DNA of 64,000 nucleotides from an uncultured Planctomycetales bacterium (lineage in GTDB: Bacteria; Omnitrophota; Gorgyraeia; Gygaellales; Profunditerraquicolaceae): contig CAZIUK010000001.1 in NCBI GenBank assembly GCA_964542785.1, positions 197,115-261,114 on the forward strand. Reading direction: 5' to 3'. Every line of letters starts with the position of its first letter. Within the stretch, counting starts at the first letter, position 1. Made by a program: the position numbers and the translations under genes. The notes beneath the pieces are model-generated. The model saw only the letters and a program-made list of their open reading frames with translations. It was not told the origin of the DNA and searched no databases. Below are positions 5,741 through 59,487 of the stretch, piece by piece.

Positions 5741-5816
5741 TAATTACATTACCTTACAACAACATCAAAATATTAGCTGATCCAACCCTCAACAAAAGGA
5801 GGGGAAAATCCCTTAA

Positions 5817-11388: not shown

Positions 11389-11393
11389 AAAAA

Positions 11394-42817: not shown

Positions 42818-43143
42818 TGGGATTAGTTATTACAATTCATATTATTGCATGTTTACTTCTTATTATTTTAGTTTTGATTCAAAGGGGTAGAGGTAGTGGT
42901 TTAGTTGAAAGCTTTGCCGGTGTTGAGTCAATGTTTGGGACTAAGACGAGCGATTTTTTGACGCGCGCAACTACTATTTGCGCTATAATATTTTTTCTTA
43001 CTTGTTTAGTGCTTGCTATTCTATCCGTCAGGCAGAGTAAGTCCTTATTAGCCAAAGTTAAGCCCCCAGCTACTAGTGTTAAAGAGAGCAAACTTCCTGC
43101 TGTAGATCAATCAACGCCTATTACAGGTGCAGCTGAAGAATAA
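42814..43143 (+). CDS. secG: preprotein translocase subunit SecG
   Basis: Two TM helices; LIQRGRGSGL motif. Confidence 0.85.
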   Translation: MMGLVITIHIIACLLLIILVLIQRGRGSGLVESFAGVESMFGTKTSDFLTRATTICAIIFFLTCLVLAILSVRQSKSLLAKVKPPATSVKESKLPAVDQSTPITGAAEE

Positions 43144-44284
43144 AAAACTATTCTGGATATATGCTTTAAGTAGTTCTGTTTATTTTACTCAAGGCATTGA
43201 AGCGCTTCCTTCCCAAGGTTTATTTTACTATCTTAAAGAAACCCTTAATTTTTCTCCACAAAAAATAATGGTTATCTTAAGTATCCCAGCCTTTGCTTGG
43301 ATGGTTAAGCCTTTTATCGGTTATGTAATTGATAATTTTTTTAGCAAGAGAAGATGGATTTTTATCTCTCTTGTTTTGGATATTTTAATGGTTTTGGCTT
43401 TAGGGTTAATACAGATGCCTTTGATGACGTTAATTATTTTGTTAGCCATTAACTCCGCTGATTCTGCTTTTCGTGATGTGGCGGTTGACGGGGTTATGTG
43501 CGTTGAAGGGAAAAAATATAATGCCACGGGAAAAATTCAGAGTATTCAATGGATTGCTTTATCCGTAGCAGGGATTATTACCGGGACTGGCGGAGGCTAC
43601 CTTGCGCAGATATGGGGGTACAGGGGCGCGTTTCTTTGCCTTATACCAATTTATATTATAGTTATGCTGCCTGCTTATTTTTATCGTGAGACGATAGTAA
43701 GGCAAGAGAGTAAGCGCAGAAGTTTAATCGATGATTTAAAAACACTTATTTATGATAAATACCTTTTAGCGGTAGCGCTCTTTATTTTTCTTTATAAATT
43801 TTCTCCTTCTTTTGGGGCTCCGCTCTTTTTTATTCAGCGCGATAATTTTGGCTGGGGGAAGGTTTGGATAGGAACTTTGAGTACTATCGGGACTATTTTT
43901 GCTATTATCGGCTCAATATTTTATTTTAAATTAAGCGAGAAGATCAATATAAAAAAGTGGTTATTTGTCTCGGTATTCTTAGGCGCGGTTACTACTTTAA
44001 GTTATCTTTATTATACGCCGGTTACTGCGGTTATTTACGATGTAGTTTATAGCTTTATCGGCATGTTTATTTTTATTATGGTGATGGATTTTATGGCGAG
44101 GAGTTCTATTAAGGGCTTAGAGGCGACTTCTTTTGCGCTTTTATGCAGTGTAAGTAATTTAGCGCTTGTTTTAAGTAACCTCTCTGGCGCATATCTATTA
44201 CCTAAAACAGGTTTAAGCTGGCTTATTATAATTTCTTCGCTTGCTAGTTTTCTTTGCCTTCCTTTAATCCGTAAGATAAGATAG
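43127..44284 (+). CDS. MFS-type transporter (BT1/AmpG-like); GTG start
   Basis: About 12 TM; family assignment tentative. Confidence 0.55.
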   Translation: MQLKNKKLFWIYALSSSVYFTQGIEALPSQGLFYYLKETLNFSPQKIMVILSIPAFAWMVKPFIGYVIDNFFSKRRWIFISLVLDILMVLALGLIQMPLMTLIILLAINSADSAFRDVAVDGVMCVEGKKYNATGKIQSIQWIALSVAGIITGTGGGYLAQIWGYRGAFLCLIPIYIIVMLPAYFYRETIVRQESKRRSLIDDLKTLIYDKYLLAVALFIFLYKFSPSFGAPLFFIQRDNFGWGKVWIGTLSTIGTIFAIIGSIFYFKLSEKINIKKWLFVSVFLGAVTTLSYLYYTPVTAVIYDVVYSFIGMFIFIMVMDFMARSSIKGLEATSFALLCSVSNLALVLSNLSGAYLLPKTGLSWLIIISSLASFLCLPLIRKIR

Positions 44285-44345: not shown

Positions 44346-44474
44346 ATGGCAAATGTAAAAAGTGTCGGAGAGGTTTATAAATGTAGTATCTGTGGGAATG
44401 TAGTTGAGGTAAAAGAAGTTGGCGGAGGGGAATTAGTTTGTTGCGGTAAGCCGATGGAGAAGATTGTAGGGTAA
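44346..44474 (+). CDS. desulforedoxin (42 aa), absent from the ORF track
   Basis: [42 protein letters not shown]; C-x2-C...CC FeS4 motif close to D. gigas desulforedoxin; strong RBS AAAGGAGGAG. Confidence 0.85.
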
Positions 44475-44477: not shown

Positions 44478-45422
44478 TTGGGCAAAGACATTAAGATACT
44501 TGTTACTGGGGCGACAGGCTTTATCGGAAGGTATCTTATCCTTGAATTGTTGTCGCGCGGATATACTAATATAACTGCCTTAGTGCGGCACACTTCCGAT
44601 GTATCTTTTTTAAAAACGAATAGGATAAAGATTGCCTTTGGGGATATAACAGATAAGATTTCCATTGATTCTTTAGGAGATTATTACGAAGTTTTATTTC
44701 ACTGCGCTGGATTTGTAGCTGATGAGGATTTAGAGGCTTTACATAGGGTAAATGTTTTAGGAACCCAAAATTTATGCTCTTGGGCTTTAGAAAATAAGCT
44801 TAAAAAAGTTGTTTATACCAGTTCAGTTGCGGTTAATTCCGGGAATCTCCAAACTCCCCTTACAGAGGATAAACCCTATTTAGCTACTAATAGATACGGG
44901 GAATCAAAATTAGAAGCAGAGAAGATTGCAGTTGAGTTTCAGGGTAAAGGGTTGCCTCTTGTTATTGTCCGGCCTTGCATGGTTTATGGAGAAGGGGAGC
45001 CGCATATGCTTTCTCTTTTAGTCCGGCTCTTAAGGTTAAGGCTACTTATTTTACCTGGCTTAGGAGAGCCTAAGTTGCATCTTGTTTCTGTGCGTAATGT
45101 TGCCGCTTTCTTAGCGCATTGTATGGAGGATGAGCGGGCTGTGGCAGGGGTATTTCATATAGCGGATAAAGAGGTCCTAAGCCTTAAAGATATTTTTAGT
45201 ATATTTGCTAAAAGTTTAGAGTTAAAAGAACCGCTCTTACTTTCGCCTTTCTTGACAAAGATCCTCTCCTTTCTTCCTTTTATCGGAAAGAGAATTAGGT
45301 TTCTATCCAAGGGGAGAGTTTATAGTTTAGAGAGGATAGAAAAAATCCTTAATTTTATTCCTCCTTATTCAGCCTATCAAGAATTAAGGCTTTCAGTAAA
45401 AAATTTTTCAAAAAAACCTTGA
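44478..45422 (+). CDS. NAD-dependent epimerase/dehydratase family protein (TTG start)
   Basis: ILVTGATGFIGRYL. Confidence 0.75.
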   Translation: MGKDIKILVTGATGFIGRYLILELLSRGYTNITALVRHTSDVSFLKTNRIKIAFGDITDKISIDSLGDYYEVLFHCAGFVADEDLEALHRVNVLGTQNLCSWALENKLKKVVYTSSVAVNSGNLQTPLTEDKPYLATNRYGESKLEAEKIAVEFQGKGLPLVIVRPCMVYGEGEPHMLSLLVRLLRLRLLILPGLGEPKLHLVSVRNVAAFLAHCMEDERAVAGVFHIADKEVLSLKDIFSIFAKSLELKEPLLLSPFLTKILSFLPFIGKRIRFLSKGRVYSLERIEKILNFIPPYSAYQELRLSVKNFSKKP

Positions 45423-45464
45423 CAACCCTTATAAAGGGTGTATACTTGTAAATGGAAACCATTT
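45419..45464 (+). promoter_or_regulatory. TTGACA-N16-TATACT promoter followed by the 7-1-7 palindrome AAATGGAAACCATTT (candidate Fur-family operator)
   Basis: Promoter at 45419-45446; palindrome at 45450-45464, immediately upstream of the Fur-family gene. Confidence 0.45.
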
Positions 45465-45480
45465 TCATTTAGAGGGAATA

Positions 45481-45951
45481 ATGTATAGAGAGGATTGGGG
45501 CAGACACGGTTGGTGGCAAGGGAAATTTAGAGGTTGTGGCTATAGAATTACCTTAGGCAGGGAAGCTGTCTTAGATGTCCTCTCTAAATCAGATAAACAT
45601 TTAAGCGCAGAAGAGATATATAAAAAAATCCGCGCAAGGTTCCCAAGTGTCGGCTTAACTACCGTTTATAGGACGCTGGATGTTTTAGTAAACTTAGGGC
45701 TTGTCTTTAAGTTTGACTTCGGCGATAAAAGGGCACGTTTTGAGTTAGCAGAAGGCCCTAAGGGGGTAAGACATCATCACCATTTAATCTGTACTAACTG
45801 TAAGCGTGTTATAGATTATACTGATTTTATTGATGAAGAGGTTGAATTATTAAACCAGACAGAGAGAGGCTTAAGCGAAAAATACGGGTTTAAAATTACT
45901 AATCATCTGATTCAATTTTATGGCTTATGCGGTACTTGCAGAAAGCCTTAA
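45481..45951 (+). CDS. Fur-family transcriptional regulator (Fur/PerR/Zur type)
   Basis: wHTH ...LDVLSKSDKHLSAEEIYKKI..., HHHHLIC-x-C and CGTC metal sites. Confidence 0.85.
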   Translation: MYREDWGRHGWWQGKFRGCGYRITLGREAVLDVLSKSDKHLSAEEIYKKIRARFPSVGLTTVYRTLDVLVNLGLVFKFDFGDKRARFELAEGPKGVRHHHHLICTNCKRVIDYTDFIDEEVELLNQTERGLSEKYGFKITNHLIQFYGLCGTCRKP

Positions 45952-45965
45952 AAAATTTTAATTAT

Positions 45966-45980
45966 AAATGAAAATCATTT
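45966..45980 (+). promoter_or_regulatory. second copy of the 7-1-7 palindrome AAATGAAAATCATTT upstream of the DUF5320/NifX cluster
   Basis: One mismatch from the site at 45450. Confidence 0.4.
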
Positions 45981-46015
45981 CCAGTAAAACTATTTTTTTT
46001 AGGAGGAGTTAAATT

Positions 46016-46525
46016 ATGCCGAGGTTTGACGGAAGCGGGCCTTTAGGTAAAGGGCCTTTTACAGGCAGGGGAAAAGGATTCTGTGTTTTGAAATTAACAG
46101 ATAAAGAGAAGGGTAAGGTTAATAATGGAAAGGGGGTGGCTGATATGCCAAGAGGAGACGGAACAGGCCCAATGGGGCAGGGACCAATGACAGGAAGAGG
46201 TGGTGGGTATTGCGCTGGTTTTTCTACTCCTGGGTATGCTAATCCTATTGCTGGTAGGGGTTATTTTGGCAGGGGGATGGGTTTTGGCCGGGGAGCTAGA
46301 AGAGGATGGCGTAATTGGTATTACGCTACAGGCCTTGCCGGTTGGCAGAGGGCTTCAATGGGTATGCCTGCTTTTGGCGGAGCATATCCTTATGCGCCTG
46401 AGATAACTCCGGAAGAAGAGGTGAATATCTTAAAGAGCGAAGCTGAAGTTTTAAAAAGAGAGCTTGAAGATATTCAAGGGCGTATTGAAAGCTTAGAGAA
46501 AGCACAGGCAAACAAGGCTAAATAG
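46016..46525 (+). CDS. DUF5320-like glycine-rich protein (two MPRxDGxGPxGxGPxTGRGxGxC motifs) with C-terminal coiled coil
   Basis: MPRFDGSGPLGKGPFTGRGKGFC and MPRGDGTGPMGQGPMTGRGGGYC. Confidence 0.6.
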   Translation: MPRFDGSGPLGKGPFTGRGKGFCVLKLTDKEKGKVNNGKGVADMPRGDGTGPMGQGPMTGRGGGYCAGFSTPGYANPIAGRGYFGRGMGFGRGARRGWRNWYYATGLAGWQRASMGMPAFGGAYPYAPEITPEEEVNILKSEAEVLKRELEDIQGRIESLEKAQANKAK

Positions 46526-46537
46526 CCATTTCTGTTA

Positions 46538-46572
46538 AAAAAAAGGGGGGGGTAGAATCCCTCCCTTTTATA
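46538..46572 (+). terminator. candidate rho-independent terminator
   Basis: AAAGGGGGGGG-TAGAAT-CCCTCCCTTTT hairpin then a T-rich tract. Confidence 0.35.
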
Positions 46573-46598
46573 AAAATTTATAATTAAAGGGAGAGAAG

Positions 46599-46991
46599 AT
46601 GCGAATCGCTATATCTACAGACGGAGACTTTGTTTCCGCACATTTTGGGAGATGCCCGTTTTTTACCATCGTTGATATTGAGGGAGAGAAAATAGTAAAA
46701 AAAGAGAAGGTAGCTAATCCCGGGCATATGCCGGGGGCTATACCGCAATTCTTACACCAAAAAAATGTAGAGTGTATAATCGCCGGCGGGATGGGTATGC
46801 GTGCCAGCGGCTTTTTTGAAGATTTTGGAATAAAAGCAGTTATGGGTATAAGCGGTAGAGTCGATGATGTTATTGGACAGATTCAAAAAGGGACCTTACA
46901 GGGAGGGGAGAGCCTTTGTAAGCCGGGGTCGGGCAAAGGGTATGGATTAGATAAAGGGGTTTGTGACCACCCGGAAGAAAAGAACTGTTAA
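46599..46991 (+). CDS. NifX/NifB-C-terminal-like (dinitrogenase FeMo-cofactor-binding domain) protein
   Basis: MRIAISTDGD..VSAHFGRCPFFTIVDIE... signature. Confidence 0.8.
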   Translation: MRIAISTDGDFVSAHFGRCPFFTIVDIEGEKIVKKEKVANPGHMPGAIPQFLHQKNVECIIAGGMGMRASGFFEDFGIKAVMGISGRVDDVIGQIQKGTLQGGESLCKPGSGKGYGLDKGVCDHPEEKNC

Positions 46992-47011
46992 GAAAAGGAG
47001 AGTAAAAAGAG

Positions 47012-47389
47012 ATGAAGATATGTGTTACTTCAGAGGGAAAGTCTTTAGATTCTAATGTTGACTTGCGTTTTGGAAGGTGTCAGTATTTTATAATTGCGGA
47101 TATTGATTCTTTAGAGTTTGAAGTTTTAGAGAATCCGAATATTGATACTATGGGAGGCGCAGGTATCCAGTCTGCGCAGTTAGTAGCTTCAAAGCAGGTA
47201 ACGGCAGTTTTAACCGGTAATGTAGGGCCGAATGCATTTCAAACCTTACAGGCAGCAGGGGTAGAGGTTTTTATTGGCGCTTCAGGAACGATTAAGGAAG
47301 CGATAGAGAGATATAAGAAGGGTGAATTTCAGTCAGTTAAAAGCGCAAATGTAGGTTCAAAATTCGGAATGCCGGGTAAAAGTAATTAG
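47012..47389 (+). CDS. NifX/NifB-like domain protein (second paralog)
   Basis: DLRFGRCQYFIIADI signature. Confidence 0.8.
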   Translation: MKICVTSEGKSLDSNVDLRFGRCQYFIIADIDSLEFEVLENPNIDTMGGAGIQSAQLVASKQVTAVLTGNVGPNAFQTLQAAGVEVFIGASGTIKEAIERYKKGEFQSVKSANVGSKFGMPGKSN

Positions 47390-47396
47390 GAGGTGG

Positions 47397-47624
47397 GTGA
47401 TGCCAAGAGGAGATGGAACAGGACCTGCCGGAAGAGGCAGGGGTTTAGGTAGAGGGATGGGTAGAGGTTTAGGCCGGGGCCGTATGGGTGGGAATAGAGC
47501 TGGAGCTGGGCCAGGGGGAGATTGCATTTGTTTAAGTTGCGGAATAAAAGTAGCGCATAAGGCAGGCGTGCCTTGTGCTACGATTAGTTGCCCAAAGTGC
47601 GGGATGAATATGGTAAGAGGATAG
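47397..47624 (+). CDS. DUF5320-like protein with C-terminal CxxC...CxxC zinc ribbon
   Basis: MMPRGDGTGPAGRGRGLGRG...CICLSCG...CPKCG. Confidence 0.6.
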   Translation: MMPRGDGTGPAGRGRGLGRGMGRGLGRGRMGGNRAGAGPGGDCICLSCGIKVAHKAGVPCATISCPKCGMNMVRG

Positions 47625-47639
47625 GGTTCTTAAAAAAAA

Positions 47640-48257
47640 TTGGAAAGCAAGGTTTTAGAGAATCATAAACTATATTTAGAGAGAGTTAACTTTTATCGCA
47701 GTTTCGGTTATGACTTAGAATTAGAGAGGGATTTTATAATTGATAAATCCCTCCCTATTCTTGGGGAGATTTTAGAGATAGGAACTGGTAAAGGCCATTT
47801 TGCGCTCGCCTTAGCAAAGAGGGGGTATATTTTTAGAAGTATTGATATTTCAAAAGAAGGCCAGGAGATCGCCTTACTTAATTTAAAGTATTTTAAGTTA
47901 GAGAAGAATGTAGATTTAAGTATTGAGGATGCCCGTTTTTTAAGTTTTAGAAGCAAAAGTTTTGATACGATATTTTCCATAAACGTATTTCACCATTTAG
48001 AAGAGCCTTTAAAAGTATTAAAAGAGATAACCCGGGTTTTAACTCCTTTTGGCAAGGTTATTTTAAGCGATTTTACGGATAAAGGTTTAGGGGTGATTAA
48101 TACCTGCCATACCCAAGAGAACCGTAGGCATGATTATTTCAAGCACAATTTAGACGAGGCTAAAGAGTATTTTTTTGCCTTAGGTTTTGAAGTTAAAGAG
48201 TTTGAAAGCCAACTTCAAAGAGTCCTTGTGGTCAAAAAGGAAGAGAAAGGTAAGTAA
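47640..48257 (+). CDS. class I SAM-dependent methyltransferase (TTG start)
   Basis: LEIGTGKGHFALALAKRG. Confidence 0.65.
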   Translation: MESKVLENHKLYLERVNFYRSFGYDLELERDFIIDKSLPILGEILEIGTGKGHFALALAKRGYIFRSIDISKEGQEIALLNLKYFKLEKNVDLSIEDARFLSFRSKSFDTIFSINVFHHLEEPLKVLKEITRVLTPFGKVILSDFTDKGLGVINTCHTQENRRHDYFKHNLDEAKEYFFALGFEVKEFESQLQRVLVVKKEEKGK

Positions 48258-49111
48258 TGATTATTTCTATTGCCAGCGGTAAAGGCGGCACTGGTAAAAC
48301 AACAGTAGCGGTTAACCTCGCTTTATCTATAGATAACACACAGCTCATTGACGCGGATGTAGAAGAGCCGAATGCCCATATCTTTCTTAATCCTAAGATA
48401 TCCTTCCAAGAGAAAGGTTATATCCCCGTTCCTAGAATAGATGAGTCAAAATGTGATTATTGCGGTAAGTGCGCTAAGGTTTGCGTTTATAATGCGATAG
48501 CTGTTTTGCCCGGGAAAGACAAAAAAGATAAGGGAAAGGTTTTAGTCTTTGATCAACTTTGTCATGGTTGCGGGGCTTGTAGCGCTCTTTGTCCTAAAGG
48601 AGCTATTTATGAAGAGGATAGAGAAATTGGGGTTGTAGAAAAAGGGGAGAGTAATGACATGGAGTTTATCCATGGCAGGCTTAATATTGGTGAAGCTATG
48701 TCTCCGCCTTTAATACGCAAGGTTAAAAGTTTTATTAATGATAAAAAGAATGTGATTATTGACGCTCCTCCAGGGACTTCTTGTCCGGTTGTTGCCTCTT
48801 CAAAAAAGAGCGATTATGCTATTTTAGTTACAGAACCTACACCTTTTGGGTTAAATGATTTAATTTTGGCTGTAGAGGTATTAAGGAAGATGCAAATTCC
48901 TTTTGGCGCGGTGATTAACCGTTCGGATTTAGGAAATAAAGAAACAGAAGAATACTGCTTAAAAGAAGCTATACCTGTTTTAATGCGCATACCTTTTAAC
49001 AGGGATATAGCAGTTGCCTATTCTAAGGGGATTCCTTTGGTTGATGCCTTTCCTGCTTATAAAAAAGAGTTTAGGGAGCTTTTTGATAAAATAATCCAAA
49101 GCAAGGGCTAA
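48257..49111 (+). CDS. MinD/Mrp-superfamily P-loop ATPase with inserted 2x[4Fe-4S] ferredoxin domain
   Basis: IASGKGGTGKTT; CDYCGKCAKVC and CHGCGACSALC. Confidence 0.85.
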   Translation: MIISIASGKGGTGKTTVAVNLALSIDNTQLIDADVEEPNAHIFLNPKISFQEKGYIPVPRIDESKCDYCGKCAKVCVYNAIAVLPGKDKKDKGKVLVFDQLCHGCGACSALCPKGAIYEEDREIGVVEKGESNDMEFIHGRLNIGEAMSPPLIRKVKSFINDKKNVIIDAPPGTSCPVVASSKKSDYAILVTEPTPFGLNDLILAVEVLRKMQIPFGAVINRSDLGNKETEEYCLKEAIPVLMRIPFNRDIAVAYSKGIPLVDAFPAYKKEFRELFDKIIQSKG

Positions 49112-49135
49112 TCAGGGTTTTTTAATGGAGCTATT

Positions 49136-50002
49136 ATGATGAAGGTAAAGCAGATAGTGGTTATTAGCGGTAAGGGCGGGACAGGGAAGACTGTAATTAC
49201 AGGCGCTTTTGCGGCATTGGCAAGAAATAAGGTTATGGCTGATTGCGATGTAGATGCGGCTGATTTGCATTTGTTGCTTAAGCCAAAAATTAAAGAACGT
49301 CATGATTTTAAAAGCGGCTTAAGCGCTATCATAGATAAAAAAGCTTGTATTGAGTGTGGGAAGTGTGTTTCTATTTGTAGATTCTCTGCCATAAGTAATG
49401 ATTATGTAGTTGACCCTATAGCATGCGAGGGGTGCGCTTTCTGTAGCCACGTCTGCCCGGTAGGCGCAATAAAGATGGAAGAGTGTTTGGCAGGAGAGTG
49501 GTTTATATCAGAGACACGCTTTGGGCCCTTGGTGCATGCAAAATTAGGCATTGCCGAAGAGAATTCCGGGAAGTTAGTATCTTTGGTAAGAAAGCAGGCA
49601 AAAGATTTAGCTAAGAAGAATAACTGCGATTGGGTGATTATTGACGGGGCTCCGGGGATAGGTTGCCCTGTAATAGCTTCTCTTTCGGGGATAGATTATG
49701 CAGTAGTAGTTACTGAACCGACTTTATCAGGTTTGCATGATGCTTCAAGGGTGATAGAAGTAACTAAGCATTTTAAGGTTAAACCGGCGATGGTAATTAA
49801 TAAGCACGATTTGAATTGTGAGGTAACCAAAAGAATAGAAGAGTATTGCCAAAAGAAAGATATACCTTTATTGGGAAAGGTTTCTTTTGATAAAGCTGTT
49901 GTGGAGGCCATGGTAGAGGGCAAGACTATTATTGAATATCAAGATTCTTTAGCAAAAGAGGAGGTTAAGAGAATCTGGGCTAATCTACAGGGGTATTTAT
50001 GA
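49136..50002 (+). CDS. MinD/Mrp-superfamily P-loop ATPase with ferredoxin domain (paralog)
   Basis: ISGKGGTGKT; CIECGKCVSIC, CEGCAFCSHVC. Confidence 0.85.
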   Translation: MMKVKQIVVISGKGGTGKTVITGAFAALARNKVMADCDVDAADLHLLLKPKIKERHDFKSGLSAIIDKKACIECGKCVSICRFSAISNDYVVDPIACEGCAFCSHVCPVGAIKMEECLAGEWFISETRFGPLVHAKLGIAEENSGKLVSLVRKQAKDLAKKNNCDWVIIDGAPGIGCPVIASLSGIDYAVVVTEPTLSGLHDASRVIEVTKHFKVKPAMVINKHDLNCEVTKRIEEYCQKKDIPLLGKVSFDKAVVEAMVEGKTIIEYQDSLAKEEVKRIWANLQGYL

Positions 50003-50838
50003 AAAGAGGAGTAAAAAAAGACCTGCATATCTTAAGGTATTGTTCCTCTTTGGTAAGCGTTTCTTTTGGAAAGGTTGTTTATGTCTCTATGCCTAGGATA
50101 GATTTTTGTCCGATGGCAAGGCGTTTTTACAAAGATATCATTAAAAAAGATATTAATAAAAAACAGCAACAAAAAGCGATAAAAAAAATAATAGAGTTTA
50201 AGATTAAGAGGTTTGGTTTTTTTACAGATAAGAGAAGTTTTAGTCTACAAAGAACGCAGGTTCCTTTCGGGGCATCTGAGATGCTCATGCGCGCTTTAGA
50301 GAATAAAATTATTGACGCTGCAGTGATAGTATGCGATGGAGCAGGGACAGTTATTACTGATTCAGCTAAGGCGCTGCAGGGTATTGGTGCTAGAATGCAT
50401 AATATAGTAATGACTTCTCCTATAGATAAAGTTATGCGTAAGCTTGATTCATTAGGATGCTTTGTATTGTCCAAAGATGCTCTTATTGATCAACTTTTAG
50501 GAGTACGCAAGGCGATAGATTTAGGGTATAAGTCTATAGGAGTTACTTTAAATAGCAGTAGCGCTTTAAAGTTAGAGAGTTTAAGGGCAATAGAGAAAGT
50601 TAAGGCAGTTAAAATAACCGCACTTATTACCTGCACTAGCGGGATAAGGGAGGGAGCGGTAGTAAAGATAAAGCGGTATGGAGATTTAGTCTGGAGTTGT
50701 TCGTCTAAAGAGGTCCGTATGTTGATAGCTCCTATTGCTAAAAAGCAGTTATCCGAACTTATGCCTGTTTATGTTATTAGCAAGAAGGGTTTAAAGTTTG
50801 CCACTGCAAGCGATAATATCTTAAAAAAGAGGAGGTAA
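49999..50838 (+). CDS. hypothetical protein, possibly DUF2099-like
   Basis: PRIDFCP and VIVCDGAGTVITD are reminiscent of DUF2099; weak. Confidence 0.35.
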   Translation: MKRGVKKDLHILRYCSSLVSVSFGKVVYVSMPRIDFCPMARRFYKDIIKKDINKKQQQKAIKKIIEFKIKRFGFFTDKRSFSLQRTQVPFGASEMLMRALENKIIDAAVIVCDGAGTVITDSAKALQGIGARMHNIVMTSPIDKVMRKLDSLGCFVLSKDALIDQLLGVRKAIDLGYKSIGVTLNSSSALKLESLRAIEKVKAVKITALITCTSGIREGAVVKIKRYGDLVWSCSSKEVRMLIAPIAKKQLSELMPVYVISKKGLKFATASDNILKKRR

Positions 50839-50844
50839 GATTCG

Positions 50845-51723
50845 GTGAGGACTTATTTAGAGTGTATTCCTTGTTTTTTCCGTCAGGCGCTGGAAGGAAG
50901 TAGGCGCGCAGGATTATCCGTAAAGAAGCAGAAAAAAGTTTTGGATGGCTTTGCTGCGCTAATCCCTAAGTCCTCTTTAAAATTACCCCCGCCACAGATA
51001 GCCCGCGCAGGCTATTCTATCCTAAATAAATATTCTTCTATACCTGACCCATACAAAAAGATAAAAAGAGAAAGCAATAGGCTTGCCTTAAGATTATTAG
51101 GTAAATTAAAAAATAAGGTGGATAGGTCAAAGGACAGCCTTTTGGCGGCAGTAGAGCTGGCTATTGCAGGGAATATAATAGATTTTGGGGTTAAGAACCG
51201 CCTAAACATTAAAGAAGAGCTAAAGAGGTTAACCGCAGAAAAGGTTAAGGCTAAAAGAAGGAATCAGATATTTCGTTATCCTGCATTTAAGAAGAGTTTA
51301 AAGAGAGCTAAGAGCATCTTATATTTAGCGGATAATGCCGGAGAAGTTGTCTTTGACCGTATCTTGATAGAAGAGATAAAAAATAAATACCCGGAAAAAA
51401 TTATTTTTTATGCGGTTAAAGAAAAGCCGATTATTAATGATGCTTTATTAGAAGATGCTTTATTCTGTGGGATTGATAGGGTAGCAAGGATTATTTCTAA
51501 TGGTGCGGATGCACCTGGGACTATATTGAGTTTATGTTCTTTGGATTTTAAAAAGATTTATAAGAGTGCGGATATGGTTATCAGCAAGGGGCAGGGAAAC
51601 TTTGAGTCGCTCTCAAAAGCAAAAAAAAAGATCTTCTTTTTGTTTATGGTTAAATGTCCAGTTGTTGCAAGAGAGGTTAAAGGAAGAATGGGAGATTACG
51701 TGTTGCTATATAACAAGGCTTAA
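50845..51723 (+). CDS. DUF89 (ARMT1-like damage-control phosphatase) family protein; GTG start
   Basis: ADNAGEVVFD and SKGQGNFE motifs. Confidence 0.7.
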   Translation: MRTYLECIPCFFRQALEGSRRAGLSVKKQKKVLDGFAALIPKSSLKLPPPQIARAGYSILNKYSSIPDPYKKIKRESNRLALRLLGKLKNKVDRSKDSLLAAVELAIAGNIIDFGVKNRLNIKEELKRLTAEKVKAKRRNQIFRYPAFKKSLKRAKSILYLADNAGEVVFDRILIEEIKNKYPEKIIFYAVKEKPIINDALLEDALFCGIDRVARIISNGADAPGTILSLCSLDFKKIYKSADMVISKGQGNFESLSKAKKKIFFLFMVKCPVVAREVKGRMGDYVLLYNKA

Positions 51724-51743
51724 CTTAAAAAAAGGTTAAAGTT

Positions 51744-52457
51744 ATGAAAGTAAAGGTATTATTTGATAAGGTTGCGGGAAAGAAAGAATTGATTACTGGC
51801 TGGGGGGTTTCTTTTTTAATAGGAGACGAGGTATTATTTGATACTGGAGAAAATGGAGAGTGGCTTGTTAAGAATATTAGGGAGTTAAAAGTAGATATAG
51901 ATAAGATTAAGGCAGTAGTTATTTCTCATGACCATTGGGATCATACAGGAGGGCTTAAAGCGATATTTAATTTGAATCCTAATATAAAGATATATTCTCC
52001 TTTTAGGTTTAGCAAGGAGTTTGAAGAAGAGTTAGGTTCTTTAAAAAAGAACTTAATAGAGGTAGAAGAGCTTCTAGAGATTTCTAAGGGTATTTTTATA
52101 ACTGGTAAAATTCCCGGAGAATACCGTGGTAAAGATATGCCGGAACAGGCAGTAGTATTAGATACAGATAAAGGACTTGCGATTATTACCGGATGCGCAC
52201 ATCCGGGGGTAATAAAAATAATAGAAAAGGTAAGAGATAGGTTTTTAGGAAAGAGCATTTATGCTGTTTTCGGCGGTTTCCATATGATAGAATCAAGCAA
52301 AGATGATGTAGAGAGCGTGGTAAAAAAATTTAAGGCATTAGGCGTAATAAAAGCAGGGCCTACTCATTGTTCAGGAGATTTAGCTGAAGAAGAGTTTAGA
52401 AGAGAATATAAAGACAACTTTATAGATGTAGTAGTAGGAAAAGAGTTGGAGGTTTAA
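51744..52457 (+). CDS. MBL-fold metallo-hydrolase
   Basis: SHDHWDHTGG. Confidence 0.75.
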   Translation: MKVKVLFDKVAGKKELITGWGVSFLIGDEVLFDTGENGEWLVKNIRELKVDIDKIKAVVISHDHWDHTGGLKAIFNLNPNIKIYSPFRFSKEFEEELGSLKKNLIEVEELLEISKGIFITGKIPGEYRGKDMPEQAVVLDTDKGLAIITGCAHPGVIKIIEKVRDRFLGKSIYAVFGGFHMIESSKDDVESVVKKFKALGVIKAGPTHCSGDLAEEEFRREYKDNFIDVVVGKELEV

Positions 52458-52459
52458 TT

Positions 52460-52777
52460 ATGGCTGACTTTAAGCAGATAGATGAGGCTAGGAGATTGTT
52501 AGGTTTAGATGAAGAGGCTACTATGGGAGAGATCAAGGAAGCCTTCCGGGGTTTGGCGGTTAAATACCATCCTGATAAGCATAGGGGAAAAGAAAAGAAA
52601 GAGCATGAGGAGTCTTTTAAAAAGATAAGTGACGCAAAGGATATAATCTTAAATTATTGCGCAAGTTACCGCTTTTCCTTTAGAGAAAAAGACGTTAAGA
52701 AGAATACGATGTCTAGAGAAGAGTATGAATACCTAAAAAGATTTTACGGCGGGTTTTTTGATGATTTGGGGATATGA
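52460..52777 (+). CDS. J-domain (DnaJ-like) protein
   Basis: KYHPDKH HPD motif. Confidence 0.65.
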   Translation: MADFKQIDEARRLLGLDEEATMGEIKEAFRGLAVKYHPDKHRGKEKKEHEESFKKISDAKDIILNYCASYRFSFREKDVKKNTMSREEYEYLKRFYGGFFDDLGI

Positions 52778-53391
52778 AAAGGGTATTTGATAAATATTAC
52801 AAGAAGTTCGATGCTTGGTATGACAAGAATAGGTTTGTTTTTCTCTCGGAGGTAAGGGTTTTAAAAAAAGCCCTTCCTAAAAGAGGGGAGGGTTTGGAGA
52901 TAGGTGTTGGCACAGGGAGGTTCGCGTCATCTTTAGGGATTAAAAATGGCATAGATCCTTCTTTGAATATGCTTAAAGTTGCTAAAAGAAGGGGCGTTAA
53001 TGTTCGCTTAGGCAAGGGAGAGAAGGTTTCCTTTAAGGATGAGTCTTTTGATTACGTTGCGATCATAATTACTCTATGTTTTGTTAGGGATGTAAATAAA
53101 GTAATAAGCGAGGCAAGACGGGTTTTAAGGCCTAAGGGAAAGATAATTATCGCTATTGTAGATAGGGAGAGCTTTTTAGGGGTTTATTATAGAAATAAAA
53201 AGAGCATTTTTTATAAGAAGGCTAAGTTTTTTAGCGTAGGCGAGGTTAAGATGATCTTAAGTAGGATAGGTTTTAAGAAGTTTTCTTTTTATCAAACCCT
53301 CTCTAAATTACCCCAAGATTTAACTTCTGTAGAAGCCCCAAAAGAAGGATACGGCAGAGGTGGATTTGTAGTGATATCTGCCGTAAAATAA
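52774..53391 (+). CDS. class I SAM-dependent methyltransferase
   Basis: LEIGVGTGRF. Confidence 0.7.
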   Translation: MKRVFDKYYKKFDAWYDKNRFVFLSEVRVLKKALPKRGEGLEIGVGTGRFASSLGIKNGIDPSLNMLKVAKRRGVNVRLGKGEKVSFKDESFDYVAIIITLCFVRDVNKVISEARRVLRPKGKIIIAIVDRESFLGVYYRNKKSIFYKKAKFFSVGEVKMILSRIGFKKFSFYQTLSKLPQDLTSVEAPKEGYGRGGFVVISAVK

Positions 53392-54471: not shown

Positions 54472-55566
54472 GTGGAGAATAGTAGTAACCTTAAATTAAC
54501 CCCCATTATAGAGAAGCATAAGGAATTAGGCGCAAGATTAGCTCCTTTTGGTGGATGGCTTATGCCTATACAGTATAGCGGTATTATTGAGGAGCATAAT
54601 TGGGTGCGTTCTTTTGCCGGGGTATTTGATACCTGCCATATGGGGATTCTTGAGGTTGAGGCGGATTTAGATAATAGCAATATTGAAGAGCTTGTTACGG
54701 TTAATCTTAAAAACTTAAGTTTAAATAGTTGTGGGTATGGTTTTATATTAAATGAGGATGCAGGGGTTATAGATGACTTGATAGTCTATAAGCTCTCTTT
54801 AAATAAGTGGCTCTTTGTGGTCAATGCCGCAACAACTGAAGGGGATTTAAATTACCTGCAGGGTAAATTTAAGGGGAGTGTGAGTATAAAGAATATATCC
54901 GGTAATTTAGGTAAGGTTGATTTGCAAGGGCCTTTATCAAGGGATGTGTTGCAAGGGTTGCTTAAAAAAGATATTGGCCTTAAATATTTTCATTTTGATT
55001 ATTTTAATCTTTTGGGTGAAGAGATAATTATAAGCCGCACCGGATACACAGGAGAATTAGGGTTTGAGTTTTATATGCCTAAGACAAAGATACCTTTACT
55101 TTGGGATGAGATACTAAAAGATAAAAGGGTAAAACCTGCTGGTCTTGGCGCGCGCGATACATTACGCCTTGAGATGGGGTATAGTTTATACGGGCAGGAT
55201 ATAGATAGCAAAACTACTCCTTTAGAAGCCGGATTAAAATTATTTATTGATTGGGATAAGGAGTTTATCGGTAAGGAAGCTTTATTAAAAGATAAGGAGA
55301 GTGGGCTAAAGCGTAGGTTAGTTTCTTTTGAGGCAAACTCACGCCGCGCTCCCCGCCACAATTACCGTATAAATTATAAAGATAAAGATATAGGTTTTGT
55401 AACGAGCGGTTCTTTTTCTCCGAGCTTAGGGGTTGGTATAGGCTTAGGCTATATTACTGAAAAATTGGCAGTTGGGGAAGATATAACCCTTACTGATAAT
55501 GCTGTTAAAATAGAAGCAAAGATAGTTAAGAGGCCTTTTTATAAAAAAGGGAGTGTTAAAAATTAA
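54472..55566 (+). CDS. gcvT: glycine cleavage system T protein (aminomethyltransferase); GTG start
   Basis: TPL...H..LGA....FGGW.MP.QY N-term. Confidence 0.9.
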   Translation: MENSSNLKLTPIIEKHKELGARLAPFGGWLMPIQYSGIIEEHNWVRSFAGVFDTCHMGILEVEADLDNSNIEELVTVNLKNLSLNSCGYGFILNEDAGVIDDLIVYKLSLNKWLFVVNAATTEGDLNYLQGKFKGSVSIKNISGNLGKVDLQGPLSRDVLQGLLKKDIGLKYFHFDYFNLLGEEIIISRTGYTGELGFEFYMPKTKIPLLWDEILKDKRVKPAGLGARDTLRLEMGYSLYGQDIDSKTTPLEAGLKLFIDWDKEFIGKEALLKDKESGLKRRLVSFEANSRRAPRHNYRINYKDKDIGFVTSGSFSPSLGVGIGLGYITEKLAVGEDITLTDNAVKIEAKIVKRPFYKKGSVKN

Positions 55567-55580
55567 AAAAAGAGGAGTTG

Positions 55581-55964
55581 ATGATGGATAGTCTTTTGTT
55601 TACTAAGGAGCATGAGTGGGTAAGAATAACAGGAGAGAGTGCTACTGTAGGGATAACGGATTTTGCGCAAGAGTCATTGGGGGATATAACTTTTATAGAT
55701 TTACCTAAGCCAGGTCAAGAGTTAGCGCAGTTTGGCTTGTGTGCAACAGTGGAATCAGTTAAGGCAGCCTCTGATATATATTCTCCTTTATCCGGCGAGG
55801 TTGTAAAGATAAATGAAGAGTTGGTTAATAAGCCTGAGCTAATCAATAAATCCCCTTATAATTTAGGCTGGTTGGTAGAGATTAAGATAAAAGACTTAAA
55901 AGAAAAAGATAATCTTTTAGATGCAGAAAAATATAAAGGATATTTAAGCACCCTTTCTAAATGA
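55581..55964 (+). CDS. gcvH: glycine cleavage system H protein
   Basis: Lipoyl-lysine motif VESVKAASD. Confidence 0.9.
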   Translation: MMDSLLFTKEHEWVRITGESATVGITDFAQESLGDITFIDLPKPGQELAQFGLCATVESVKAASDIYSPLSGEVVKINEELVNKPELINKSPYNLGWLVEIKIKDLKEKDNLLDAEKYKGYLSTLSK

Positions 55965-57298
55965 ATTACTCCCCGCATACTAACGAAGATAAGAAGAAGA
56001 TGCTTGAAGTAATAGGAGTCAAGAGTATTGATGAGCTTTTTAAGGTTATCCCCGAGTCTTTAAAGCCTAAATCATTTAATATTCCTTTCGGTAGGTCAGA
56101 GTTTGAAGTAATGGAGCACTTAAGAGTTTTGGCGGGCAAGAATAATGTCTCGCTTGTTAATTTTATAGGAGGGGGGTTTTACGACCATTATATTCCCGCA
56201 GCAGTAGATGCCTTATCTATTCGCTCTGAATTTTATACTGCTTATACCCCCTATCAGCCGGAATGTTCTCAGGGTTGGCTTCAGGCAATTTATGAATATC
56301 AGACGGTGATATGCGAATTAACCGGTTTAGATGTTTCCAATGCCTCTTTATATGACGGAGGAACTGCCTTGTATGAAGCAGTGATGATAGCGCTAAGGCA
56401 TACTAAAAGAAAAAAGATTGTTCTAGATAGCGGGGTAAACCCAATCTACCGCATTATGCTTTATACTCATATTTCAAATCTTGATATTGAATTAGTTGAA
56501 ACACCGGTTACCCATGGGCAAAGCTCTCGTGAAGATATATATAAGGTTTTAGATGATAAGACAGCAGCAGTAGTCTTACAGAACCCTAATTTTTTCGGGG
56601 GAGTTGATGATTTCTCTGACATTGCAAAAGAGGCGCAAAGAGTTGGCGCTTTAACAATAGCCTCAGTTTATCCGGTTTCCTTAGGGCTTTTAAAGACTCC
56701 TTCAGAGATGGGGTTTGATATAGCTACTGGAGAAGGCCAGAGCTTGGGGATTCCATTGTCTTTTGGAGGGCCGTATTTAGGTTTTATAGCCCTTAAAGAG
56801 AAGTTTATGCGTCAGATGCCGGGCAGGGTTGTAGGAGTAACAGAGGATAAAGATAAAAAAAGGGGGTTTGTCCTTACTTTACAAGCACGTGAACAGCATA
56901 TCCGTAGGGAGAGGGCAACTTCTAATATTTGTTCAAATGAATCACTCTGTGCTTTAAGGGCTTTAATTTTTACTTGCCTGTTGGGCAAAAAAGGTATTCA
57001 TGATTTAGCGGTTATGAATTATCAAAAGGCAGAGTTTGCTAAATCGCTATTTGAAAAGATACCCGGGGTAAAAGTAAAGAAAAGTGCTCCGACATTTAAT
57101 GAGTTTACAATAGAGCTTCCTCAAACCGCTGAAAGGGCTGTCTCTTTAATGATTGATAGGGGATTTACCTGCGGTTTGCCATTAGGGAAGTTCTATAAAG
57201 ATATGGAGAATTTTCTTTTAGTTGCGGTAACTGAAAAGCGCACAAAGCAAGAGATAGTTAAGTTTGCAGAGAACCTGGAGTCAGCCTTATGCAGTTAA
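55961..57298 (+). CDS. gcvPA: glycine dehydrogenase (decarboxylating) subunit 1
   Basis: TAYTPYQPE..SQG. Confidence 0.93.
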   Translation: MNYSPHTNEDKKKMLEVIGVKSIDELFKVIPESLKPKSFNIPFGRSEFEVMEHLRVLAGKNNVSLVNFIGGGFYDHYIPAAVDALSIRSEFYTAYTPYQPECSQGWLQAIYEYQTVICELTGLDVSNASLYDGGTALYEAVMIALRHTKRKKIVLDSGVNPIYRIMLYTHISNLDIELVETPVTHGQSSREDIYKVLDDKTAAVVLQNPNFFGGVDDFSDIAKEAQRVGALTIASVYPVSLGLLKTPSEMGFDIATGEGQSLGIPLSFGGPYLGFIALKEKFMRQMPGRVVGVTEDKDKKRGFVLTLQAREQHIRRERATSNICSNESLCALRALIFTCLLGKKGIHDLAVMNYQKAEFAKSLFEKIPGVKVKKSAPTFNEFTIELPQTAERAVSLMIDRGFTCGLPLGKFYKDMENFLLVAVTEKRTKQEIVKFAENLESALCS

Positions 57299-58737: not shown

Positions 58738-58743
58738 AAAATA

Positions 58744-59487
58744 ATGAAAAAATTTAAACTTATCCGTTCAAAACCTGCTAATGCCTCTTTTAATATGTCT
58801 ATGGATGAGGGGATATTTTTGCGCTATCTTGAAGATAGGGTGCCGGTATTTCGTATTTATAGTTGGAGTACCCCTTCATTTACCTATGGGTTTTCACAAA
58901 AACCAAAAGAAGAGTTGGACATCTCTTTGTGCAATAAAGACGGGATAGGCATTGCTAAGAGGTTAACCGGAGGCGGGATATTGTTTCATAATAATGAAGT
59001 TACTTATAGTATTGCCTGCTCAAAGTCAGATATAGAAGAAGATGAGGGTGTTTTTGTCTCTTACCGGAAGACCTGCGCATTTTTGATAAACTTCTATAAG
59101 TCTTTAGGTCTAAACCCTATTTTTGCGCTTGAGTCCGTGGGATTTAAGCTTAAGGCTTCTCCTTCTAGGCTCTGTGCAGCCTCTTACGAAAAGTTTGATA
59201 TTACTATAAACGGCAAAAAGATAGGGGGTAATGCGCAAAAGAGAAGGCGGGACGTGATATTTCAGCACGGTTCAATACCTATAGATATGGATTTTAATCT
59301 TATGCGAAAGTATCTGCGTTATTTTTCTGAAAGCGTAGCTTCGGGGGTTACTTTTTTAGCTAAAGAGTTAAAAGGTAATTTAGATAAAGATGCTATTGAA
59401 GAAAAGCTAATAGAATCGTTTAAAAAGACTTTTAATGTTGAGTTTATCAAAGATGAGAGTTTAAATGAAACCGTCTTGGTTAGATAA
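58744..59487 (+). CDS. lipoate-protein ligase / octanoyltransferase family (LplA/LipM-like catalytic domain)
   Basis: RLTGGGILFHNNE; INGKKIGGNAQKR lysine motif. Confidence 0.8.
   Translation: MKKFKLIRSKPANASFNMSMDEGIFLRYLEDRVPVFRIYSWSTPSFTYGFSQKPKEELDISLCNKDGIGIAKRLTGGGILFHNNEVTYSIACSKSDIEEDEGVFVSYRKTCAFLINFYKSLGLNPIFALESVGFKLKASPSRLCAASYEKFDITINGKKIGGNAQKRRRDVIFQHGSIPIDMDFNLMRKYLRYFSESVASGVTFLAKELKGNLDKDAIEEKLIESFKKTFNVEFIKDESLNETVLVR

Follow-up and report, generated by a model that had tools for sequence, protein, structure and literature searches.

We analyzed a 64,000-nt stretch of contig CAZIUK010000001.1 (positions 197,115 to 261,114, forward strand; assembly GCA_964542785.1) from an uncultured Planctomycetales bacterium that GTDB places among the Omnitrophota. 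Within this stretch, hereafter the window, a block of genes at positions 45481-53391 runs from a Fur-family repressor gene (fur) to a second methyltransferase gene. Genes were called from an open reading frame (ORF) listing together with Pfam and NCBIfam scans; all genes and other features of the block given here lie on the + strand, and the gaps between the genes, from fur to the second methyltransferase gene, range from -4 to 73 nt. Ahead of fur lie a sigma-70-like promoter, TTGACA-16-TATACT (45419-45446), which matches the consensus at 11/12 positions, and a predicted Fur-type 7-1-7 operator, TGGAAACCATTTTCA (operator 1, 45453-45467), recognized as a palindrome match. The fur gene itself (45481-45951; PF01475, 112 bits) encodes a repressor of a cluster-specific subfamily and is followed by a second predicted operator, TGAAAATCATTTCCA (operator 2, 45969-45983), likewise a palindrome match, and by the gene for a 169-aa DUF5320 protein with two motif copies (DUF5320-A, 46016-46525), which matches PF17253 in two stretches at 128 bits. 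A terminator- or attenuator-like stem-loop with a U-tract (46542-46568) stands directly after the DUF5320-A stop codon. Next come two NifX-like proteins: NifX-A (46599-46991; PF02579, 78 bits), of the cluster-ligating type (Orp5 / MrpORP Di-Nase type), and NifX-B (47012-47389; PF02579, 93 bits), an orthologue of orange protein (ORP; Orp8). The 74-aa DUF5320-Zn (47400-47624, with the ORF open from 47397) carries the family's N-terminal motif and scores below threshold with PF17253 (20 bits). It is followed by a class I S-adenosylmethionine (SAM) methyltransferase (methyltransferase 1, 47640-48257; Pfam) and by two paralogous MinD-type ATPases, MinD-A (48257-49111; Orp3/Orp4-type) and MinD-B (49136-50002), each with an inserted 2x[4Fe-4S] ferredoxin (Pfam CbiA/ParA plus 2x Fer4). 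The remainder of the block encodes a DUF2099 protein resembling methanogenesis marker 8 (49999-50838; PF09872, 237 bits), a DUF89 / ARMT1-like metal-dependent phosphatase (50845-51723; PF01937, 230 bits), a metallo-beta-lactamase-fold protein (MBL) of the 7DCK / TM1679 type (51744-52457; Lactamase_B), a small J-domain protein of 105 aa with an HPD motif (52460-52777; PF00226), and a further class I SAM methyltransferase (methyltransferase 2, 52774-53391; Pfam), whose gene overlaps that of the J-protein by 4 nt.

Pfam scans reproduced every domain assignment of the original prediction, an earlier annotation of 46016-52457 made from the letters alone, and the ORFs lie where it had placed them. 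Its count of eleven genes did not hold, as that interval contains 10; the J-domain and methyltransferase 2 genes lie just beyond it, yet are part of the block. The genes were also said to be co-directional and tightly spaced, which is true but carries no evidential weight: throughout the window, ORFs of 100 aa or more lie almost exclusively on the + strand, and the tight spacing runs on into unrelated glycine-cleavage genes downstream of the block. Since neither co-directionality nor spacing is informative, the case must therefore rest on comparison with other genomes.

In a PDB sequence search, NifX-B matched the ORP of D. gigas (PDB 2WFB) at 5e-20, while NifX-A scored 90.6 bits with the NCBIfam model of the MrpORP C-terminal domain. 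A search with the 2WFB sequence was then made and the loci of two close orthologues were inspected (L087 and L088; loci are cited below by such numbers). The gene order in ORP orthologue loci is (Gly/Arg/Gln-rich small protein)-ORP-MinDFer4-MinDFer4-NifX-Zn ribbon. When the window proteins were compared with these loci by BLAST, NifX-B paired with ORP (41% identity, 1e-26, against 25% to the other NifX), NifX-A with the second NifX (35-41% identity in L087 and L088), MinD-A with MinD1 (43-44%), and MinD-B with MinD2 (50%), and the cross-pairs scored much lower. Because each pairs with its own partner, NifX-A, NifX-B, MinD-A, and MinD-B are one-to-one orthologues of the Desulfovibrio ORP cluster (Orp5, Orp8, Orp3, Orp4). 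Judged by sequence, the core of the block represents the anaerobe-specific ORP gene cluster of Desulfovibrio in an Omnitrophota form. The combination of genes had been called uncharacterized in the original prediction, which was mistaken for the core: two NifX and two MinD-ferredoxin genes make up the ORP cluster, known and named (PMC6345978, PMC8359166). That no function is established was correct, as the physiological role of the ORP cluster is still unsettled, and the proposal of a metallocluster carrier with an ATPase agrees with what is known of ORP homologues.

Some details of the ORP loci were recorded alongside. The gene upstream of ORP in L088 (L088:7414-7752) encodes a (GQGRGQ)n-repeat protein without a Pfam match, and the same slot in L087 holds a 217-aa protein that is not GR-rich. 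After the second NifX gene, both loci encode a Zn-ribbon_8 protein ending CCG...CAGPGxCCGKA (L088:10669-10917, L087:10651-10905), and L088, L100, and L101 have a gene for a DUF134 regulator on the upstream side. Possible tails on the longer ORP homologues P0232, P0228, and P0212 proved to be merely miscalled N-termini.

The conserved residues of the core proteins were examined in alignments of their orthologues. NifX-A conserves H15, C19, H43, C107, C122, and H124, and these Cys and His correspond to the HFGxC and CDH motifs of MrpORP, which have been proposed as [3Fe-4S] ligands in its NifX-like domain (PMC6345978). NifX-B has no conserved Cys or His, as in orange protein with its non-covalent cluster. 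Both share PF02579 with NifX, NafY, and the C-terminal domain of NifB, proteins that carry complex metal-sulfur clusters non-covalently or loosely ligated; in contrast to those systems, the window lacks nif genes (nifHDKENB), and the nearest structural relatives of its NifX proteins are ORP, MTH1175, TM1290, and TM1816 rather than NifX or NafY. Neither the ORF list nor Pfam scans revealed a nitrogenase or hydrogenase anywhere in the window, as had been stated earlier. In both MinD-type ATPases, the deviant Walker A (GKGGTGKT in A), eight ferredoxin Cys, and the Cys in PPGxxCP (C176 in A) are all invariant, and their scores with the NCBIfam models for MinD, Mrp, and NifH are all far below cutoff. 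They share the GKGGxGK[ST] Walker A and the invariant PPGxxCP Cys after Walker B with other SIMIBI ATPases (Mrp/NBP35/ApbC, CooC, NifH), but have a 2x[4Fe-4S] ferredoxin inserted after the P-loop and lack the CxxC motif of Mrp or the CxC motif of CooC. In the Mrp/NBP35/ApbC, CooC, and NifH families, nucleotide-dependent dimers hold or insert metal clusters.

In D. vulgaris, orp3-orp4-orp5 and orp7-orp8-orp9 form two divergent sigma-54 operons under the redox-sensing activator OrpR (PMC6345978, PMC8359166), whose regulon comprises the orp operons only (PMC8359166). These papers describe a pulled-down complex of Orp3, Orp4, Orp5, Orp8, and Orp9 (PMC6345978, PMC8359166). Orp9 (MrpORP) loads Orp3 and Orp4 with Fe-S clusters in vitro, a homologue of Orp5 binds [2Fe-2S], and Orp8-type proteins hold a Mo-Cu sulfide cluster non-covalently (PMC6345978). 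The physiological role has been given as "putatively" cell division (PMC6345978, PMC8359166). The window resembles the cluster of D. vulgaris Hildenborough in its orthologues of Orp8, the second NifX, and both MinD-ferredoxin ATPases, in a small Gly/Arg-rich protein encoded just upstream of the ORP gene (L088), in its restriction to anaerobes, and in a dedicated local regulator that targets only its own cluster (OrpR, PMC8359166; Fur in the window). It differs in lacking MrpORP/Orp9, no Mrp/NBP35 gene being present in the whole window, and in forming a putative single co-directional operon, whereas D. vulgaris has two divergent ones, with orp7 the first gene of one. It also has Fur and 7-1-7 operators instead of sigma-54 and OrpR: matches to the -24/-12 consensus of sigma-54 promoters occurred at chance level with none ahead of the cluster, and the block contains no enhancer-binding-protein gene, a Fur-family gene lying directly upstream of DUF5320-A. 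Finally, the window adds two DUF5320 genes, methyltransferases, DUF2099, DUF89, MBL, and the J-protein.

A GTDB scan with a DUF5320 alignment yielded 80 loci, and all ORFs in them were scored with the window proteins. These loci span Planctomycetota, Actinomycetota, Verrucomicrobiota, Bacillota, Desulfobacterota, Chloroflexota, and Spirochaetota, and also include NC10, Acidobacteriota, WOR-3, Zixibacteria, Atribacterota, Omnitrophota, and Methanoperedens. Occurrence was counted where DUF5320 is followed by 6 kb or more of sequence, as it is in 42 loci, and enrichment was calculated by dividing the density within +/-5 kb of the DUF5320 gene by that in the remainder of each locus (DNA 5-10 kb away). 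NifX-B was present in 35/42 loci (enriched 13x), MinD-A and MinD-B in 32/42 each (11x and 4.6x, respectively), DUF5320-Zn in 30/42 (35x), and NifX-A in 25/42 (2.1x). Among the other genes, DUF89 was found in 14/42 loci (9x) and within 8 kb of DUF5320 in 27/80, MBL at 100 bits or more in 6/42 (1.4x), methyltransferase 1 in 3/42, and DUF2099 in 0/42. Clustering is far above chance, the densities of NifX-B, DUF5320-Zn, MinD-A, and DUF89 being 9- to 35-fold higher near DUF5320. Several DUF5320-anchored loci contained MrpORP, either complete, at 516 and 557 bits (cutoff 450), or as its P-loop half, with split forms at 350-394 bits. By the NCBI model, whose cutoff the complete forms exceed, DUF5320-anchored loci thus count as ORP clusters. 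The suggestion from this survey that DUF2099 is never linked (0/80 loci) was overturned by five DUF2099-anchored look-ups, in which NifX genes were found in 5/5 neighborhoods and MinD-ferredoxin genes in 4/5; DUF2099 is linked in clusters of the Omnitrophota type, and the zero reflects the taxa sampled. The idea that the genes are syntenic in no other genome clearly fails against these loci, and the original prediction of a conserved syntenic metal-cluster-handling unit stands.

The whole order from fur to methyltransferase 2 is kept in two Omnitrophota loci, L102 and L103, where DUF2099 is ~50% identical, and is partly kept in L099, L100, L008, and L084. In L102, the first part reads Fur-DUF5320-NifX-NifX-small protein-methyltransferase-MinD-(oxidoreductase)-MinD-DUF2099 and continues NifU_N-radical SAM-DUF89-MBL-...-HypA-thioredoxin-DnaJ-methyltransferase, then FeoAB, with rubrerythrin before the cluster. 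L103 has the same order, except that an Mrp-like ATPase replaces NifU_N after DUF2099, NifU_N lies after the last methyltransferase, one further NifX gene is present, and FeoAB and rubrerythrin are missing. The Fe-S context in relatives thus comprises NifU_N, an Mrp-like ATPase, thioredoxin, HypA, radical SAM, FeoAB, and rubrerythrin. The window block is a reduced edition of the L102/L103 block. Other relatives contain recurrent filler genes between MinD-B and DUF89 (L084:9436-10050, 10893-11084, 11084-11863; L008:8210-8839, 9666-9917; L034:12881-13672), which encode a ~205-aa protein (...VRFCEATKEAI...), a small Cys-rich protein (CKWYELCPLKRFYEQG...), and a ~260-aa radical SAM protein; all are absent from the window, where DUF2099 occupies the slot.

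The accessory genes were compared in the same way. In L084, L099, L100, L102, and L103, as in the window, methyltransferase 1 stands after the NifX genes and ahead of MinD-A; outside the lineage it is rare, being present in 3 of the 80 loci. DUF2099 follows MinD-B in L099, L100, L102, and L103. Its score with TIGR03275 (methanogenesis marker 8), 214.8 bits, is under the cutoff of 232.7, and it has a weak Pfam FrhB_FdhB_N match and invariant C37, C112, C212, and C234. An AlphaFold2 model of the protein (predicted local distance difference test, pLDDT, 87) gave Foldseek matches to HCAR, FrhB, and F420-CODH with E = 5e-5 to 1e-3 and low template-modeling scores of 0.25-0.37, and we tentatively regard DUF2099 as a remote FrhB-like Fe-S/flavin redox module. 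DUF89 retains the DNAGE and KGQGN motifs and scores 199 bits with NCBIfam NF040824, against a cutoff of 440. MBL follows DUF89 in L008, L034, L102, and L103; a literature search on PDB 7DCK yielded nothing usable. An orthologue of the 105-aa J-protein ends the same block in L008 (146 bits), L102, and L103, and its pairing with a methyltransferase recurs in L102 and L103. By analogy with HscB, the J-protein may recruit Hsp70 for cluster release.

These accessory genes raise the alternative that the block consists of two modules, an ORP core from DUF5320 to MinD-B and, functionally separate from it and merely packed alongside, DUF2099, DUF89, MBL, the J-protein, and methyltransferase 2. The co-directional, tightly packed arrangement of the window, with spacing equally tight into the glycine-cleavage genes, would allow this, as would the lack of DUF2099 in the 80 GTDB loci, the few loci with strong MBL, methyltransferase, or DnaJ matches, and the lack of MBL enrichment near DUF5320. 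However, the order MinD-B - DUF2099 - ... - DUF89 - MBL - ... - DnaJ - methyltransferase is kept in L102 and L103, with their ~50% identical DUF2099, and partly in L008, L034, L099, and L100; the DUF2099 neighborhoods contain NifX and MinD-ferredoxin genes at the frequencies given above, and the 9-fold enrichment of DUF89 near DUF5320 extends across phyla. A division into two modules is thus unlikely, and we treat the block as one unit in what follows.

The two DUF5320 proteins had been described as one with a duplicated motif and coiled coil and another with a Zn ribbon. DUF5320-A contains two copies of the motif MPxxDGxGP...GRGxGxC, a disordered cationic region rich in Gly, Arg, and aromatic residues, and a C-terminal coiled-coil helix; in its AlphaFold2 model, residues 1-124 have pLDDT <50 and the helix at 132-167 has pLDDT 82-92. 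The N-terminal 26 residues of the family are almost invariant across phyla (M-P-[RG]-G-D-[GR]-T-G-P-x-G-x-G-P-M-T-G-R-[AG]-A-G-[YF]-C-A-G-[YF]), and the motif Cys is kept in 71/71 motif copies. DUF5320-Zn starts with MPRGDGTGP and continues with a GRG-repeat cationic segment and a C-terminal CxCxxC...H...C...CxxC module, whose ligands C43, C45, C48, H54, C60, C65, and C68 are invariant in 33 orthologues. It begins MPRGDGTGPAGRGRGLGRGMGRG 7-10 nt after the stop codon of NifX-B, which ends ...ANVGSKFGMPGKSN. At least 15 of the 80 loci encode an ORP-type NifX domain that continues into a GMGRG-repeat segment and a coiled coil, in many cases with a 2x[4Fe-4S] ferredoxin domain behind them, and this extension exceeded the PF17253 gathering cutoff of 27 bits in four of the five fusion proteins scanned (28-41 bits). 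The parts so fused, NifX-B and the GR-rich segment, are separate adjacent genes in the window. Comparison of the loci shows the uncharacterized DUF5320 proteins to be integral parts of ORP-type clusters. Searches of the literature on DUF5320, DUF2099, PF17253, and COG1149 returned no relevant paper, and neither a role for DUF5320, nor Fur control, nor the extension by DUF2099, DUF89, MBL, and J-protein was found in the searchable literature.

Stable hairpins follow the DUF5320-A stop codon in L103, L084, and L021; they are unrelated in sequence and have z = -3.2 to -4.8. The hairpin of the window, at z = -1.3, does not differ significantly from shuffled sequence and takes its weight only from this recurrence elsewhere. 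A hairpin at this position suggests attenuation, by which DUF5320-A would be made in excess.

The Fur-family gene and its operators were next compared among loci. The sigma-70-like match ahead of fur is the best of a 16-kb region, as a consensus match with no mapped start site. Operator 1 is located just downstream of the promoter -10, ~14 nt before the fur start codon, and operator 2 is located 33 nt before that of DUF5320-A. Only these two matches (at most one mismatch) occur in the window, a count that is circular since the pattern was derived from them. The independent test consisted of 1.12 Mb of loci outside the window, searched at the same stringency. This DNA contained 21 operator matches, of which 17 fell at one of two places: at the called fur start or ahead of it (11 loci, with a distance of 24-43 nt in nine), and in the spacer between fur and DUF5320 (six loci: L084, L007, L010, L021, L022, L047). 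L099, L102, and L103, which were not used to define the pattern, have the second box in the spacer, and L102 and L103 also have one before fur; no operator was found before feoA when these three loci were checked. The consensus, TGAAAATnATTTTCA, is a 7-1-7 Fur-family box near the classical TGATAATnATTATCA, and the TGRAAAYNRTTTYCA sites are predicted to be candidate targets of the Fur homologue. Among the 74 loci with enough upstream DNA, 12 have a Fur-family gene as the immediate upstream neighbor of DUF5320. Alignment of this subfamily showed an N-terminal WW[HQ]G[RK]FRGCG[YF]R extension, an HHHHLxC motif, and two CxxC motifs. In the window protein, the extension (residues 1-24, 45481-45552) is rich in Trp, Gly, and Arg, with a frequently conserved Cys (FRGCGYR), and its composition is like that of DUF5320; it may be a sensing element. 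PF01475, the structural CxxC pair, and the 7-1-7 operator are shared with Fur and PerR, but the window regulator is of a distinct subfamily and appears to control only its own cluster. It looks like a dedicated, autoregulated cluster repressor and the functional counterpart of OrpR. Placement under a Fur-family regulator next to desulforedoxin was thus half right: the Fur link is real and its operators are conserved, but the desulforedoxin-like gene is two genes upstream of fur. That gene (44346-44474) encodes 42 aa, has a PF06397 match in the identical contig L001, and ends 3 nt before the start of an NAD-dependent epimerase gene (44478-45422), which stands between it and fur.

A comparison with IssA of Pyrococcus furiosus was also made. 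In IssA, a NifX-like domain is joined to a tail that is disordered, cationic, rich in Gly and aromatic residues, and equipped with one Cys; the protein stores thioferrate, in the form of nanoparticles, and rebuilds ferredoxin clusters (PMC5524996). A pattern based on that paper's cloning primer recovered nine IssA-like genes (MKIAIPTNGGG...) from vent metagenomes, on contigs L090-L098. Their tails are ~50 to 100 residues long, Pro-rich at first, then with GWGRGRG repeats, ending ...GYCPWTG...FGWW. When these tails were compared in composition with DUF5320-A residues 44-128, values were for isoelectric point (pI) 10-11.5 in the tails and 10.6 in DUF5320-A, for Gly 15-27% and 28%, for Arg 9-13% and 10.6%, for Lys 0 in both, for Pro 13-23% and 9.4%, and for aromatic residues 17-22% and 16.5%; each has one Cys, in G-Y-C. 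Relatives of the window cluster moreover fuse both parts into one IssA-like polypeptide. The NifX domain and the cationic part are, in contrast, separate genes in the window; the invariant N-terminal motif and the coiled coil of DUF5320 have no counterpart in IssA; and IssA is controlled by SurR/S0 and, as far as the paper says, is without MinD-type ATPases (PMC5524996). Pairwise identity of NifX-B to the IssA-like NifX domains is 31-37%, with ORP closer at 41%. The criteria published for IssA tails are pI of at least 9, <5 Cys, and at least 20% Gly in the last 40 residues (PMC5524996); NifX-B has a pI of 5.4 and no tail, and the fused relatives end in a coiled coil or ferredoxin domain, unlike such tails. 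A weak similarity (E = 5e-5) was also seen between DUF2099 residues 69-151 and the NifX-like domain of IssA-like proteins.

Our preferred explanation, to which we assign a probability of roughly 60%, is that the block is one Fur-repressed operon, ATP- and electron-driven, for holding and transferring Fe-S (metal-sulfide) clusters. The mechanism proposed has five steps, the first two of which (Fur, DUF5320-A) are partly shown and the other three inferred. First, the dedicated Fur would bind the two 7-1-7 operators, at its own promoter and before DUF5320-A, and release them on loss of a metal or redox signal. Second, DUF5320-A, mostly disordered and cationic, with its invariant N-terminal Cys motif and coiled coil, is probably overproduced because the hairpin follows its gene. 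Third, NifX-B, without Cys ligands, would hold an anionic inorganic metal-sulfur species non-covalently, which the cationic DUF5320 segments would neutralize or wrap, as proposed for the IssA tail and thioferrate, while NifX-A would ligate a discrete Fe-S cluster through its conserved Cys and His. Fourth, the MinD-type ATPase pair, with its ferredoxin inserts and invariant PPGxxCP Cys, would form a nucleotide-dependent dimer and couple ATP hydrolysis and electron transfer to cluster loading and unloading. Fifth, DUF2099, the J-protein, DUF89, MBL, and the methyltransferases would be lineage-specific helpers. A more specific and doubtful extension is that DUF5320 proteins are free-standing, often fused, counterparts of the IssA tail that with ORP-type NifX proteins nucleate and coat an anionic thioferrate-like iron-sulfide polymer or nanoparticle, possibly as a condensate that the coiled coil holds together, the ORP cluster then being a regulated Fe-S mineral store with its own ATP- and electron-driven loading and unloading machine.

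Several points weigh against the Fe-S holding and transfer explanation and this extension of it. No ORP complex has an established biochemical function, and the sole reported ORP phenotype is a morphological defect that was read as a cell-division role (PMC6345978, PMC8359166). The reported native ligand of orange protein is a Mo-Cu sulfide cluster and not Fe-S (PMC6345978). MrpORP, the sole component with demonstrated Fe-S carrier activity, is absent from the window; MBL shows no enrichment around DUF5320 across the 80 loci, outside this lineage (1.4x); and the operon structure is inferred from gene spacing, not transcripts. Fur-type repression usually leads to induction under iron shortage, which fits emergency assembly or trafficking better than a store filled under iron excess. 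As for IssA, homology of its tail to DUF5320 was considered and rejected. PF17253 did not match three IssA-like proteins or an isolated tail even at E up to 10, and BLAST of the IssA tail against DUF5320, corrected for composition, gave E >0.3. With neither a PF17253 match nor composition-corrected similarity, the resemblance is therefore one of architecture and chemistry with homology undemonstrated, and the link is an analogy only.

The morphological defects that followed orpR inactivation in D. vulgaris (PMC6345978) are the basis for a different view, in which ORP-type proteins form a cell-division or septum-positioning device, the MinD-like ATPases oscillate or mark poles, the Fe-S domains serve only as redox sensors, and the NifX-like and DUF5320 proteins are adaptors. 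Orp3 and Orp4 are said to bear a MinD-like C-terminal amphipathic helix and MrpORP to be polar (PMC6345978, PMC4641369 table), and the window ATPases belong to the MinD/ParA class. We nonetheless consider this quite unlikely, since neither the window nor the inspected loci link MinC, MinE, FtsZ, or any further division gene to the cluster, and the recurrent neighbors are NifU_N, Mrp, thioredoxin, FeoAB, DUF89, and radical SAM; Fur-family control and NifX-ferredoxin fusions point to metal chemistry, and the source papers themselves term the role "putative." Such a role is also less well supported than Fe-S holding and transfer, as are the other alternatives considered here.

It is likewise rather improbable that the cluster handles Mo or W (with or without Cu) as thiometallate, with NifX-B binding a cluster of the [S2MoS2-M-S2MoS2] type for storage, detoxification, or cofactor supply. 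When isolated, orange protein from D. gigas carried a Mo-Cu sulfide cluster bound non-covalently (PMC6345978), and NifX-B is its orthologue, likewise without Cys ligands; moreover, PF02579 includes FeMo-cofactor carriers, and a cationic partner would be suited to any anionic thiometallate. Yet the window and the inspected relatives contained no mod/tup transporter, no molybdopterin gene, and no Mo/W enzyme, the linked metal genes are Fur, FeoAB, NifU_N, and Zip, with NikR/CbiM in one case, and the regulator is Fur-type, not ModE-type. The view that DUF5320 proteins are precursor peptides or substrates modified by the methyltransferases, radical SAM enzyme, MBL, and DUF89, in a pathway of protein maturation or resembling that of ribosomally synthesized and post-translationally modified peptides, draws on their small size, invariant 26-residue N-terminal motif and Cys, the adjoining methyltransferases, and the radical SAM enzyme of relatives, but is highly improbable given that the whole N-terminal segment is conserved with no variable core, that most DUF5320 loci lack methyltransferase and radical SAM genes, that no protease or exporter is linked, and that DUF5320 is fused to NifX and ferredoxin domains, which is unexpected for a peptide precursor.

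Among gene sets that are widely conserved and specific to anaerobes, the ORP cluster is one of the few whose function is still unsettled, and Fe-S cluster storage and trafficking in strict anaerobes are poorly understood. The cluster has been studied since 2011. The present analysis ties the Desulfovibrio ORP complex, Pyrococcus IssA, and DUF5320 together through gene order, gene fusion, and composition, and adds a regulatory handle, a dedicated Fur-type repressor with a defined operator. The ORP core was already known; the synteny of DUF5320 and its fusions to NifX, the Fur subfamily with its operators, and the extended Omnitrophota gene order are new here. The ORP cluster is widespread in anaerobic bacteria and some archaea and has been unexplained since its study began; if the storage extension were true, a thioferrate-like Fe-S store would be common in anaerobic bacteria, not peculiar to Thermococcales.

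The surroundings of the block include gap-pgk-tpi-secG, priA, fmt, polysaccharide synthesis genes, the glycine cleavage system, lipA, and rubrerythrin, and a near-identical contig shows the same gene order as the window. The source names of the closest homologues place the organism in Candidatus Omnitrophota. Rfam and tRNA scans of the 64 kb gave no matches. The window (1-64000) has an extreme strand bias, and its GC skew is positive except in one 2-kb bin (4001-6000), with the cumulative skew reaching 6.8. In the polysaccharide-synthesis region, a 511-aa ORF (19007-20542) has no Pfam match at E <=1e-5. A paralogous pair of GalT/HIT-like genes (DUF4921 / GalP_UDP_transf; 37704-38729 and 38731-39726) precedes gap-pgk-tpi, and a gene of the BT1 (folate-biopterin transporter) family (43127-44284) lies upstream of the block. 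Downstream, 54472-60298 encodes gcvT, gcvH, gcvPA, gcvPB, and lipoyl synthase, together with what its translation suggests to be a lipoate-protein ligase; these genes have no relation to the cluster but flank it tightly. A rubrerythrin gene with a C-terminal rubredoxin-like CxxC...CxxC (60447-61025) lies 7 kb downstream of the block, and in L102 the rubrerythrin gene is directly upstream of the cluster's fur gene.

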